Below are positions 13,181 through 54,417 of a DNA stretch of 64,000 bases, piece after piece. A program made the position numbers and the translations under genes. Below the pieces are notes generated by a model. The model saw nothing but the letters and a program-made list of their open reading frames with translations, had not been told where the DNA came from and did no database searches. The stretch's first letter is position 1. The number at the start of each line of letters is the position of its first letter. The stretch comes from Eledone cirrhosa (taxonomy: Eukaryota), in assembly GCA_964016885.1 (NCBI GenBank), contig OZ024764.1, forward strand, positions 4,154,001 to 4,218,000, read 5' to 3'.

Positions 13181-13788
13181 GTTGGTATGGTCACGTGATG
13201 AGCATGAAAGACGACAGCTGTATAAAAAAGTGCAGGGCAATAAAAATAGACGGTAGCCACGGAGTAGGCAGACCCAGAAAAACCTAGGACGACTTGATAA
13301 ATTCCGACCTCACACACTTACACCTCTCCAAGACAATGTCACTGGCCCGAGATCTTTGGCGCTACACAGTAACACAGAAGAGCGGCCTTACCTAAGGGCA
13401 AAGTAAAACCTACTACAGTCAGTAGGCACCTCTAACAAAAATACACCCCAGCCCCACTACCCCCACCCCATCGACACCACCCCTTTCAATGTAAAGTTAT
13501 GTTGGTACCACAACATCCAGTCCGAAACAAATGAGGTCGTGTAGGTGTCACGACAAAAAAACACGCAGTCCACGCCGTAATGTGGCCGTGTAGGTAACAC
13601 GGTAAAAACCTCCCAGCCCCACACTGTAAACGTGGTTGGTGTTAGGAAGGGCATCCAGCCGTAGAAAACCCGCCAGACAGTCCTATGCGAGCAAGACAAC
13701 CACTCTTGCCTCAAGTGGGAAAACTCCCGTCCAAACCCATGCAAGCGTGGAAGATGGTCGTTAAATGATGATGATGATGATGATGATA
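13178..13788 (+). mobile_element. RTE family 2, 3' fragment with long 3' UTR
   Basis: Collinear with 2224-2832. Confidence 0.9.
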
Positions 13789-45335: not shown

Positions 45336-45717
45336 TCATCATCATCATTTTACGTCCGCTTTTCCCTGCTTACAAGTGTATATATATATATATACACACA
45401 CAAACACAGATACACACACACATATATATATATATATGTGTGTGTGTGTGTATATGTGTGTATATGTGTGTGCATATACATACACACACATATATATATA
45501 TATATGTATATGTGTGTGTGTGTGTGTGTATGCTTGTATGGATGGGTGAATATGAGAGCTATGCAAGTGTTTACAATTACCAAAGTAAATATGAAAATGT
45601 TTTTTTAGATTGATGAGTGTATAAAACCAATATTTGTTGATGTATAATGTCATCATCAACACCACAAACAGAAGTATCATTCTACATCCTTTTTCTCTGA
45701 TATATATATATTTATTT

Positions 45718-46515
45718 CATCATCATCATCGTCATCAACGTTTAACGTCCGTGTTCCACGCTTGCATGGGTTTGGACGGGAGTTTTCCCACTTGAGGCAA
45801 GAGTGGTTATCTTGCTCGCATAGGACTATCTGGCGGGTTTTCTACAGCTGGATGCCCCTTCCTAACACCAACCACATTTACAGTGTGGGGCTGGGAGGTT
45901 TTTACCGTGTTGCCTACACAGCCACATTACAGCGTGGACTGTCTGGCAGGTTTTCTACAGCTGGATGCCCCTTCCTAACACCAACCACATTTACAGTGTG
46001 GGGCTGGGAGGTTTTTACCGTGTTGCCTACACAGCCACATTACAGCGTGGACTGTCTGGCGGGTTTTCTACAGCTGGATGCCCTTCCTAACACCAACCAC
46101 ATTTACAGTGTGGGGCTGGGAGGTTTTTACCGTGTTGCCTACACGGCCACATTACAGCGTGGACTGTCTGGCGGGTTTTCTACAGCTGGATGCCCTTCCT
46201 AACACCAACCACATTTACAGTGTGGGGCTGGGAGGTTTTTACCGTGTTACCTACACGGCCACATTACAGCGTGGACTGTCTGGCGGGTTTTCTACAGCTG
46301 GATGCCCCTTCCTAACACCAACCACATTTACAGTGTGGGGCTGGGAGGTTTTTACCGTGTTGCCTACACGGCCACATTACAGCGTGGACTGTGTGTTTTT
46401 TGACGTGACACCTACACGATCTCATTTGTTTCGGCCTGGATGTTGTGGCACCAACATAACTTTACATTGAAAGGGGCGGTGTAGATGGGGTGGGGGTGGC
46501 GGGACGGGGGTGTAT
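45718..46515 (-). mobile_element. RTE family 2 3' UTR with a ~119-bp internal unit repeated five times
   Basis: ggatgccc(c)ttcctaacaccaacc recurs at about 45850, 45963, 46076, 46188 and 46300. Confidence 0.88.
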
Positions 46516-46813: not shown

Positions 46814-48086
46814 ATATATATATATATGTTTATAAATATACTTATAATGAACATACATTAAACACAGTCCCTCTGTGTTTAATGTATGTTCATTAGTATA
46901 TGTGTTGTCATTTCTGCTTGCATTTTGCATATATACATATATATATCTATATATATGCTTGTGTGGACCCCTCTCAAAAATTCGTTGGATTTTCTAATTG
47001 GATACCCCGACACTGGATACCAACACTGAATACACCTGAACTTCTACCAGGAAATCTTTCGTTGTCATTTCTGCTTGCATTTTACATATATAGATATATA
47101 TATCAATGGTTGCGTGGACCCCTCTTAAAGATTCGTTGGATTTTCTAATTGGATACCCCAAAACTGGATACCAATCACTGAATACACCTGAACTTCTACC
47201 AGGAAATCTTTCATATCAGTGAAAATTTTCTTTTCTTTGCTTCATATATATTATATATACTTGTCCGCCATTGCAAAAGGCCATAAATTCAAAATTTTGA
47301 AGAGAGAGGAAAAGAGAGAAGTGATCTATGAACTTGTAACATCTCACTGACCCCCCCCCCCCCGTCACCACAATAACAATAACGCCTACACTCGCTCCCC
47401 ACCATCACCACATTACTCTAAGGTCGCTGTCCTGTCCCCTGTTGACATACTGCTGACTCTCTTTTGATGTATGTATGTGTATATACATATGTGTATGTGT
47501 GTGTATATGTGTATATCTCTGTGGATGCGACCAGATTTCAACACAGCAACAACAACAACAACAACAACAGCAACAACACCATCGTCTGTGTTGAATGTGT
47601 GTGTATGTATTTGTATATATGTGACAGCAATAACAGCATCAACACCATTGTCTGCAGCAACAGCAGCAGTGAAATGAAGGACAACAACAACAGTAACAAC
47701 TACAACAACTACAATAACAACTACAGCACCAACAACTGCCACCACCATCACTGACACCATCCACCACCACCACACTGACACCATCCACCACCGCCATTAC
47801 CAGCGTAAACAAACAATTATTATTGTTATTGTTATTATATACAAGCCGAACTGGACTGGGAAAGGTCAACAGTTGACATGATAGTGATTTTGACGACTTT
47901 GACTTTGATTTTGATTTTGTATCGGTACTGTCGGTAATATATGTATATATATGTTTGTGAGTGGTGTGCGTGATTGTATGCATGAATGAGTGTTGGTATG
48001 TGTGGTTGTGGTTTGTATGCATGAGTGTTGGTGTGTGAGTGTTTGTGTGTGCGTCGTGTCAATAAGTTTTTTTTTTTTTTTTTTTT

Positions 48087-51000
48087 CATGACCATGCTGT
48101 AAAATGGAGGGGTAGAGAGGGCCCTTGAGTCTAGTAAGACATCCTCTCTAGTGCTGGTGGCACAAATAAAAGCACCCAGTCCATGCTGTAAAGTGGCGCT
48201 GGTGTTAGGAAGGGCATCCAACCAGTGTATCAATGCCAAAAAGCTTATCAGCACAGCAACAAAACAGCATAGAAAAATATGAAGACGTCGCATCTCAGAG
48301 TTGCAACACTTAATGTTGGCACTCTCAGAGGTAGATCTGCTGAAATAGCGGAGATGCTGGAGAGAAGGCAGGTGGATGTGTGCTGCGTGCAAGAGGTGAG
48401 ATGGAGAGGTGCCTCTGCGAGACTAGTCGTAGGCAAGCGTCTTAGCTATAAGCTATTCTGGGTAGGTAAGGATGATGGGTTAGGGGGAGTAAGCATTTTC
48501 CTGGCTGAGAAATGGATCAATAAGACAATAGAGGTAGTTCGAGTTAGTAATCGAATAATTAAGCTTAGATTAGTTGTAGGTAGGAGACTACTGACAATCA
48601 TCTCGGTCTATGCTCCCCAAGCAGGCCTAGGCAAAGATGAGAAAGACTGCTTTTATGAGCAACTTTTGCAAACAACCACAATGACAGAGGACGGAGACAT
48701 TGTTATGCTAGCAGGAGACTTCAATGGTCATGTTGGACAGCTCCAGGATGGTTACACTGGGGTACATGGTGGGCACGGTTACGGTTCAAGAAATGAAGAA
48801 GGAGTGAGACTTCTTGAATTTTGTGATGCAAGTACATTGACTATTTGCAACACAAACTTCCAGAAACCTGCCAATCACCTAATAACCTACAAATCTGGTG
48901 AGCACATAAGCCAGATTGACTTCCTGCTAGTTAGGCAGCGGGACAGGCAGATAGTGTCTAATACCAAGGCATACCCTGGGGAAGAATGTACCCCACAGCA
49001 TAGGTTAGTTGTTAGTGATATCTCAGTAAGCAAGAGATGGAATGAGACATATAGGAAGGTGTGGAGAAGAAAGGTCTGGAAGCTAAAAGACCTTTCACTA
49101 AAATTCAAATTTAGGAAAGCCCTTCAAGATGTATATGACGAAAAAGAAGACGATTTAGAGACGTATGACATAGATAATAACTGGAAGTTCTTACGTGACA
49201 ACTTGCTGAAGACTACTGATGAAACCTGTGGCTGGAGCAGAGCTCCAACCAGACAGAGAGTGACCTGGTGGTGGAACAGCAGTGTAGATAAGGCTATTAG
49301 AGACAAAAGACTAGCATGGAAGGCTTGGAATAAGGGTGGGAGTAGGGAAGAATATACAGCCACTAAGAGAGAAGCTAGACGTCAGGTGTACTTAGCACGC
49401 AGGGAGGCAGAGAGTAGGAGGTTTGCCAATGTTCTGCGACGGGAAGATCAGAGGCGTGCGGTGTTCCACATTGCAAGGCAGTGTGTCAATGCAAATCAGG
49501 ATGTTGTTGGTGATAAATGTGTCCGGGATGATGCCGGTGTACTTAGTGTCACGAATGACCAGAAAAAGGAGGCCTGGAAATGTCATTATGAGAGACTGAT
49601 GAATGTGGAGAACGAATGGGAGAGAGAGAAATTACCCTTGGTAGATCCGACAGAGGGACCAGCTATTGAGATTGACGAATATAGGGTCCAAGAGGCGATT
49701 AGGGAAATGAAAAATGGTAAGGCGGCCGGACCATCGGGAATAGTTGCTGAGATGCTGAAGGCATCAGGGGACGTAGGCACTAAACTGGTTGCACGCATAA
49801 TCAATCAGGCTATATATGGTGGTGTCATACCCAAAGACTGGTGCAGCAGTATTCTCATAAATTGCTACAAAGGTAAAGGGGATGCTTTGGAGAGGAGCAA
49901 TTATAGGGGTATAAAACTGATAGATCAGGTTATGAAAGTGGCAGAAAGGATTTTAGCACAACTAATTAGAGAAAGGGTCAAACTAGATGAGATGCAGTTT
50001 GGTTTTGTGCCTGGGAAGAGTACAACAGATGCCCTCTTCTTGGTGAGACAAATGCAAGAGAGGTTCTTAGAGGTTATAAGCCACTATACTTAGCCTTTGT
50101 TGACCTAGAGAAGGCCTTTGATAGGGTACCCCGATCTGTCATCTGGTGGTCCCTAAGGAAGCTGGGTGTTGAGGAATGGCTTGTAAGGACAGTGCAAACT
50201 TTGTACAGAGGTACTCTCAGTAAAGTCAGGGTAGGAATGGAGTTTAGTGAGGAATTCCAGATACAAGTAGGAGTACATCAGGATTCGGTCCTCAGCCCGC
50301 TCTTGTTCATTATAGTCCTCCAAGCCATAACAGAGGAGTTTAAGACTGGCTGTCCATGGGAACTTCTCTATGCTGACGATCTGGCTCTTATGGCAGAATC
50401 AGTAGAGGAGCTAGAGAATAAATTCCGGCTATGGAAACAGCAGTTGGAAGCAAGAGGACTGAGAGTAAATCTAGCTAAGACAAAAGTGTTGATGAGTAGA
50501 AAAGAGGACAAAACCCTGATTCCGTCAGGGAAATGGCCATGTTCGATATGCAGAAAAGGAACTGGCATAAATTCTATAAAATGCACACAATGTAGGTCCT
50601 GGGTACACAAGAGATGTAGCGGGATAGCAGGCAAACTAACAGGTAGGGAGAAATATGTATGCAGTAGATGTACAGGGAAATTAGACAGTAGAAGTCGCAC
50701 TGATAGACACATTTTTCAAATGCGAGAGGGCGCTATAGAAGTGGTGGATAGCTTCCGGTACCTAGGAGATCAGATTAGCATGGGAGGAGGGTGTTCCGAG
50801 GCCATAGTATCTAGAATAAGGACGGGTTGGAAGAAGTTTAGGGAGCTGCTTCCTCTGTTGACGAAGAAGGGTTTCTCCCTGCGTACGAAAGGCCGGTTGT
50901 ATGATGCCTGTGTGAGGAGCGCGATGCTGCATGGTAGTGAGACATGGGCAGCTACCGCAGAAGATATGCGACGGCTGGAGAGAAATGAGGCAAGCATGCT

Positions 51001-51357
51001 CCGTTGGATGTGCAGTGTAAATGTGCGTGAACGACCCAGCATAAATGTGTTGAGAGAGAAACTGTGTCTGAGAGGGATAGAATGTAGTGTACGGGAGAGG
51101 AGACAGGTGGTATGGACATGTGATGCACATGGAGGATGACCGATGGGTGAAGAAGTGCCAGGAAATGCCAGTTGAAGGAAGACGTGGTAGAGGTAGACCA
51201 CGAAAAACATGGGCGGAGGTGGTGAGAACAGACCTCAGATCATTGAAGCTCACGGTGGAGGTGACGAGTGGAGAGATGCTGTGCTGAATAAGACCCGTCC
51301 CACCCTTGCAAGCAGGGAAGAGCGGACGTAAAATGATGATGATGATGATGATGATGA
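48087..51357 (+). mobile_element. Near-full-length RTE (BovB-like) LINE, family 1
   Basis: Structured 5' UTR, single APE-RT ORF broken by frameshifts, 3' stem-loop and (ATG)n tail. Confidence 0.96.
48279..51331 (+). pseudogene. APE endonuclease / reverse transcriptase ORF with Cys/His finger, frameshifted at about 50070 and 51105
   Basis: ATLNV, VQEVRW, SVYAP, GDFNGH, QIDF and HRLV (APE); DLEKAFD, HQDS (HQGS in the 18.8-20.9 kb copy) and LYADD (RT). Confidence 0.95.
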
Positions 51358-54087: not shown

Positions 54088-54417
54088 TGGTGGCACATGG
54101 CTTAGTGGTTAGAGCATTGGCCTTACAATCGAAAGGTTGTGAGTTCAATTCTCAGACCGGGTGATGTGTTGTTTCCTTGAGCAAGACTCTTTATTGCTCC
54201 AGTTTACTCAGCTGTAGAAATGAGATGGTAGGGACTGGGGTCCCTATCACTCCGCTGCAAAGTGGTCGTGGAGGTGCCACGGCAAAAAAGCACCCAGCAC
54301 TCACTGTAAATGAGGTTGGTGTTAGGAAGGGCATCCAGCTGTAGAAATCAAGCAAGAATCAGTTCCTGTCCCACCCTTGCAAGCAGGGAAAAGCGGACGT
54401 AAAATGATGATGATGAT
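54088..54417 (+). mobile_element. SINE family A
   Basis: Full head to (ATG)n tail, with a small internal deletion. Confidence 0.9.

Follow-up and report, generated by a model that had tools for sequence, protein, structure and literature searches.

A two-part RNA module of RTE-like LINEs and SINEs in Eledone cirrhosa: a likely shrunken LP head joined to a conserved RTE core

The segment at 48087-48240 of the window (the whole stretch of 64,000 nt of Eledone cirrhosa DNA that was analysed) is a composite of two separable parts and not one unit. Its 5' part, a pseudoknot followed by a hairpin with a CUGUAAA loop, is likely a shrunken LP head, the presumed LINE promoter that is found at the 5' ends of LINEs and SINEs (Matetovici 2016, PMC4758252). 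Its 3' part is a conserved RTE core, which elsewhere stands behind a twister ribozyme, a tRNA head or nothing. The sequence-only reading from which this work started had proposed a selected cis-acting RNA fold without a named family. The selected fold is supported and has no Rfam family, but the single module of that proposal turned out to be composite, with a 5' part that is likely homologous to the published LP head. Tentatively, we regard the module as an RNA handle that the element's own protein can grip irrespective of where the module lies in the RNA.

In the window the module lies within the 5' UTR of family 1, a young RTE-like LINE with at least 150 near-identical copies in a host genome of 3.0 Gb, in which AT microsatellites are abundant. 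Family 1 has one endonuclease-RT ORF, which a short uORF overlaps, and ends in a simple-repeat tail; we take these features to be those of the RTE clade. A PHD-like finger is seen in ORF2 at 50540-50670, 3' of the RT domain. The 5' UTR extends over more than 1.2 kb, the module is internal to it, and the family-1 3' UTR lacks the module. The features are listed in Table 1. The 3' base of H1 (48199-202) overlaps the 5' strand of the core basal stem, and these two pairings are mutually exclusive. The loop of the core (48212-16) could possibly pair with 48234-37 over the start of the uORF and so form a second pseudoknot. The PK1 stems of family 1 have energies of -4.5 kcal/mol (stem 1 alone) and -3.8 kcal/mol (stem 2 alone); the pseudoknot itself is beyond the scope of the energy models used, and the MFE folds vary. 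One copy (L160) has a deletion between H0 and H1, and in an older relative of family 1 (L106) the block of stem-loop, knot and hairpin is doubled in the 5' UTR.

Table 1. Positions of the module, its parts and its carriers in the window.
Feature	Position	Strand	Remarks
Family-1 LINE 5' UTR	46864..48232	+	stretch common to other genomic copies; start at 46864 or further 5'
U-tract within family-1 5' UTR	48067..48086	+	seen in most copies
H0, first CUGUAAA-loop hairpin	48092..48107	+	4-bp stem; direct repeat of H1; from sequence
Family-1-specific stem-loop	48113..48150	+	outer stem 8 bp
PK1, predicted H-type pseudoknot, likely reduced LP-head knot	48151..48176	+	S1 48151-54/48160-63; S2 48156-59/48173-76
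H1, CUGUAAA-loop hairpin, likely LP stem with collapsed inner hairpin	48176..48202	+	
Conserved RTE core	48197..48237	+	basal stem 48197-203/48221-27; 5'-end hot spot 48197-48212
26-codon uORF, overlaps ORF2	48233..48313	+	from sequence
ORF2 (endonuclease, reverse transcriptase, PHD-like finger)	48279..51139	+	frameshift near 50090 in window copy
Two pseudoknot-plus-hairpin units and core, family-2 LINE 3' UTR	13536..13665	+	
Module in SINE A (tRNA-like head, module, tail common with family 1)	54265..54345	+	

The four pseudoknots on which the earlier proposal was built were recovered with the coordinates and the pairing given for them, and the hairpin stems and the downstream motif also agreed with its description. 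The core is present in 18 copies in the window and in 30 copies in 400 kb of random genome. A descriptor retrieved 17 pseudoknot units from the window, whereas 12 local dinucleotide shuffles yielded 0.5 on average (range 0-2); the 17 units are copies of a few families and not independent events. Pairing is not preserved throughout in stem 2, which is broken in several families; in a comparison of 15 units, stem 1 was 83% paired and stem 2 66%. A C-A mismatch occurred in 20 sampled copies of unit 2 of family 2 versus 14 that were paired, and a central mismatch in stem 2 was found in unit 2 of family 3. In unit 1 of family 2 both sides of one stem-2 pair were changed, and a fourth family showed compensation again with another pair swapped. 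Both compensation and breakage occur among 225 hairpin-anchored units taken from 847 kb of genomic loci.

In the alignment of the 15 units, which was unfitted and had some rows 1-2 columns off, 75.6% of the cells paired versus 67.9% when shuffled and 31-47% when slid. Double changes affected 6 of 11 pairs, as many being reached in 24 of 500 shuffles, and the covariation score was 0.251 versus 0.153 shuffled. Since the shuffle and slide controls ignore relatedness, these values are suggestive. Part of the apparent compensation in stem 1 could be CpG decay on both strands. Identity of the knot to two older relatives was 0.92 and 0.88, compared with 0.68 and 0.52 over the 50 nt after the core. 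Since several successful subfamilies have a broken stem 2, selection on the short pseudoknot seems partly relaxed here, and in several families of this genome the short pseudoknot is dispensable or decaying. The core was found in every sampled copy, partly by design since it was the search anchor; its invariance is built into the search patterns and thus speaks for presence, not covariation. At five loci (L109, L077, L095, L111 and L024) a knot-plus-hairpin unit of ~50 nt is amplified as tandem minisatellites in which the pairing is decaying.

The CUGUAAA loop, which had been described as nearly constant, does not persist in those foreign elements in which the knot occurs. The last motif, GGUGUU-AGGAAG-GGCAUC, is present as described, but as a hairpin it is weak (z -1.55 and -1.63) and might rather belong to the possible second pseudoknot at the start of the uORF. 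No Rfam family matches the module: a search with the module alone gave three chance matches only, and among the matches listed for the whole window (150 of 295) there were only repeat-driven microRNA matches and one tRNA. The Pistol ribozyme and the preQ1-I riboswitch, compared with the module by eye, were rejected for want of an intervening P2 helix or conserved loop.

The LP head is carried by Nimb-17_LMi, I-3_DR, RTE-9_CPB and mollusc LP-SINEs (PMC4758252). Its published alignment (supplement of PMC4758252) can be read as a knot, then a stem that encloses a small hairpin; no structure is given for it in the part of PMC4758252 available. It resembles the window module in the succession of a short stem, one U, a second stem, an A-rich linker and a stem with a loop ending in UAA, and in being common to LINEs and SINEs. 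The window module has a pseudoknot-capable segment and an A-rich linker directly 5' of an enclosing stem. The LP head is ~70 nt long, lies at the extreme 5' end and has a 7-bp stem 2 and an inner hairpin (PMC4758252), whereas the module described here has a stem 2 of 4-5 bp and no inner hairpin, and is found internally, in tandem or in a 3' UTR. The window module lacks the inner hairpin of the LP head with its conserved UAAGAGG loop, but an old family of this genome has it. Nor is the module at the extreme 5' end, as 98 of 129 family-1 copies reach at least as far as the U-tract.

Comparison of the sequences suggests that the window hairpin is probably the LP stem from which the inner hairpin was deleted between two UAAA words, which would make it homologous to the LP head. 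The case for the short knot being homologous to the LP knot is built on position, topology and short motifs and not on a model-based match. Older relatives of family 1 still hold the LP linker motif, the foreign loci L038 and L044 have an LP head directly 5' of the core, and in L053 it stands at the 5' end of the element. The CUGUAAA hairpin was also considered as a degenerate twister, and this was rejected, the LP-type stem (seen in L031-like loci, L038, L044 and the old family) explaining the hairpin better; H0 keeps a twister-like look.

The module occurs in other settings in the same genome. Among 16 spans of family 2, which is ~57% identical to family 1 in the endonuclease, 15 have it in the 3' UTR, 3.0-3.3 kb beyond the start of the endonuclease. 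The 5' UTR of family 2 seems to be whole (~750-800 nt) in three copies (L095, L206, L208) and is partial or missing in the others; it does not contain the module, and of the matches at least 956 nt upstream, those listed in detail belong to separate insertions. On the minus strand, a family-2 3' UTR at 45700-46420 has a 112-nt unit-plus-core block repeated several times. SINE A has the body of a bipartite RTE-derived SINE, a LINE leader piece and a LINE tail behind an RNA-derived head. At 54205-54226, upstream of its module, a further hairpin with a CUGUAGAAA loop is found, so that the motif occurs three times in this element. Other short families retain the hairpin and the core only. The full LP head stands before the core in an old short family (474 exact pattern matches, 30 loci read), in which the similarity between copies begins about at the knot (30 copies; pairing in decayed copies was judged by eye). 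Another LINE family (L142-L150) starts with a twister without P3, followed by a hairpin and the same short GUAAAA motif. Its twister scores 39.8-49.8 bits, below the gathering cut-off of 67.2, and all nine model matches, which were selected for completeness, start at the predicted cut.

Outside this genome, the core pattern was found in 41 metagenome and 9 genome-bin loci, which fall into ~20 clusters; the grouping is rough, divides some families and puts L034 and L064 together. A pseudoknot is present at the same position in 4 of the 20 foreign clusters versus 0.24 expected, and the twister locus is a fifth descriptor match. The sequence 5' of the foreign cores varies: a twister in L061 (the only Rfam match among the foreign loci), an LP head in L038 and L044, a tRNA head without a knot in L060, L157 and L159; L034 and L064 have the short form of the knot. 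The second stems of L038, L044 and L053 are 6-7 bp long and of quite different sequence, and between lineages the letters of the stems are wholly different while the pairing is kept. Animal-type LINE/SINE sequence in prokaryotic genome bins (L151-L159) is likely contamination from a host or bystander. When the LP hairpin alone was the anchor, a knot of at least 10 pairs was found in 7 of 19 distinct loci versus 0.28 expected. Five of these seven are viral contigs, and a sixth viral locus with one mismatch was recognized by eye; five of the six viral loci lie 29-121 nt from a contig end. The remaining one (L221/L237), a complete LP-type knot and hairpin, is near position 92100 inside a 212-kb viral contig, not near its end. 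The core pattern was not found in the viral sequences scanned.

The points at which copies of family 1 begin were mapped in 129 ORF-anchored copies (130 of 150 near-identical matches, minus the window copy). The starts of 98 copies were at the U-tract or beyond, seven in 48087-48148, one at the foot of the knot, three in 48153-48196, 14 in 48197-48212, one in 48213-48240, two in 48241-48268 and three at the edge of ORF2. The pile-up at the core foot (48197-48212) amounts to 0.88 per nt versus 0.04-0.11 per nt nearby (p 2e-8), ~12 times background, and the hot spot coincides with the 5' strand of the core basal stem. A pattern-enriched list of 97 copies, judged by eye and overlapping partly with the 129-copy sample, had 37 starts in 48197-48212, 13 in 48153-48196 and six in 48149-48152. 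An ORF2 control list (n=65) gave 31 independent ends in 78 nt, with at most six per any 5 nt and no comparable peak. A uniform 5' end of the element at a cut site is absent in family 1, the starts being spread over ~14 nt. No pile-up at the core foot was seen where the module is 3'-located or in a SINE (1 of 16 family-2 tails, 0 of 28 SINE A copies), the comparison with family 1 giving a Fisher p of 0.12 in these small samples. Telomere-like repeats are joined to the 5' junction of core-starting copies in L123:1470-1500 and L164. About 9 in 100 family-1 copies start within the U-tract, perhaps via microhomology with AT-repeat targets.

The module sits in the 5' UTR of family 1, in the 3' UTR of family 2 and in mid-body of the SINE, and a handle for the protein fits this placement and its retention best. 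The ORF2 protein would grip the core and the shrunken LP knot on the RNA, folded as predicted in cells, possibly while the protein is still on the ribosome. The core would do the work; the short knot would be accessory to it, with selection relaxed, and the relic of a guard of the 5' end. At the bound or folded core 5' decay would halt, or copying would be completed, and the 5' ends of the copies would pile up there. A folded 5' RNA motif is bound by the R2 protein of the silk moth (PMC12503042), likewise a structured part of the RNA that is bound by a retrotransposon protein and tied to the completion of insertion; R2 differs in clade and sequence, and binding was shown for R2 whereas here it is presumed. 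Against the handle counts that the core-foot pile-up is not seen for the modules of the 3' UTR or SINE. Next to the tail, the module could also be retained by hitchhiking. Viral contigs are not expected to encode an ORF2 protein. As the LP knot is present in them, the ancestral knot needs another job than that of a handle for this protein.

In a rival reading the knots are exonuclease roadblocks: read-through RNA would be chewed 5' to 3' until the fold, and the tail-bearing remnants would be copied back. We consider this account of the knots, in which the LP head would block where the twister cuts, with the same outcome, unlikely, although the LP head is found at the 5' end of LINEs and SINEs (PMC4758252) and of L053, it occupies one slot with the twister, the similarity of the old family begins about at the knot in 30 copies, five of the six full viral motifs lie near a contig end, and the ends of family 1 pile up at the 5' foot of the core and not at its 3' side. 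Most family-1 copies (98 of 129) continue past both knots, one of 129 starts at the PK1 foot, and the six starts in 4 nt at PK1 in the enriched sample (p 0.006, uncorrected) include four that can be explained by TA microhomology; moreover, the 3'-located modules are without a pile-up and tRNA-headed SINEs should not require such a block. A roadblock fits the full LP head well, and it fits the ends piled up at the core; with the weak short-knot signal and the negative finding in the tails it does not agree. Viral xrRNAs, frequently located in the 3' UTRs of viruses, are also compact pseudoknots, and the RNAs that they leave behind have defined 5' ends (PMC8374639), whereas the window module has no Rfam match and a simple H-type topology. 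Ends at the foot of the fold, as expected of an xrRNA, are present at the family-1 core, weak at PK1 and unseen in the 3'-located modules. A role in translation is still less probable. The core, as a second pseudoknot before the start codon, would recruit or position ribosomes independently of a cap, and SINEs would keep it to stay near ribosomes that make ORF2. The helix between the loop and the downstream sequence scores at least 10 in 12 of 20 foreign representatives versus 3 of 20 in the next stretch, with a threshold that was chosen afterwards, but at a threshold of 9 the counts are 14 versus 14. In several foreign LINEs an AUG stands ~10-20 nt further on, and in family 1 the AUG and the helix overlap. 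The loop was fixed by the search pattern, hence its covariation is invisible, and support for a second pseudoknot is moderate. In family 2 the 5' UTR is without a core. An element that serves translation only is at odds with this family and with the non-coding carriers, unless contact with the ribosome itself helps them.

A function at the DNA level seems very improbable; the module would then be an internal promoter or bind a factor, a minor start would lie near 48200, and the pairing would be a relic. The LP head has been proposed as a promoter (PMC4758252), Kojima 2018 (PMC5786205) speculates on the binding of regulators to conserved RTE 5' parts, and the pile-up is confined to the 5'-UTR setting; yet the pairing holds between lineages in which the stem letters wholly differ, and small viral contigs carry the motif near their ends. 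Slighter still is the likelihood of an unrecognised self-cleaving ribozyme or a working derivative of the twister, an option that the sequence-only reading had listed and that is not supported for these families, in view of their ragged 5' ends and the lack of a match to any Rfam ribozyme. Its slot is the one that a twister takes in other elements, and H0 looks like a twister from which P3, P4 and L4 have been removed (cf. the table in PMC8501958). The catalytic loop is missing, however: the twister P4/L4 loop with its two pseudoknots had no model match in 48060-48300 at E up to 10, while the model does match L061 and nine other places in the genome. The starts of family 1 are spread and most copies extend past the module, unlike the nine of nine at the cut in the twister family, and a cut within the 3' UTR or the SINE would sever the element.

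The sequence pieces are of kinds that are already known, the LP head and bipartite RTE bodies. In bipartite RTE-derived SINEs an internal piece of an RTE 5' UTR is likewise kept with the tail in non-autonomous elements (Kojima 2018, PMC5786205); the part of that paper available proposes no fold and mentions no autonomous family with the piece shifted to its 3' UTR, and the 11-mer of the core is absent from its supplement. The twister T-variants of Perere-3 are structured RNAs in the same slot of related leaders (PMC8501958), and an intact twister in such a slot heads another family of this genome; the window module differs from them in that it has no catalytic loop and lies inside the RNA, and in that its 5' ends are not uniform. 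The available parts of PMC13282606 and PMC9115989 contain no occurrence of 'ribozyme' and no description of a UTR structure. In the openly accessible literature searched, no description was found of the fold, of its reduction or of the hot spot of 5' ends. The LP knot and the RTE core might represent an undescribed class of portable RNA pseudoknots of LINEs, SINEs and small viruses that define and protect RNA 5' ends without cutting. They would be the counterpart of viral xrRNAs in cellular transposons, could be exchanged for ribozymes and would account for the bipartite make-up of RTE-derived SINEs; this broader proposal is speculative and we think it rather doubtful.

The question why RTE-derived SINEs retain part of the LINE leader is open (Kojima 2018, PMC5786205). 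It has now become testable with a concrete structure, with natural variants in which this is full, shrunken, absent, replaced by a twister or moved to the 3' UTR, and with a footprint at the 5' ends of the copies. RTE UTRs are being engineered for RNA-only gene insertion, in which 5' truncation is a main problem (PMC13708176), and an element that sets where copies begin would therefore have practical use. A fold common to transposons and viruses would extend the known classes of RNA.
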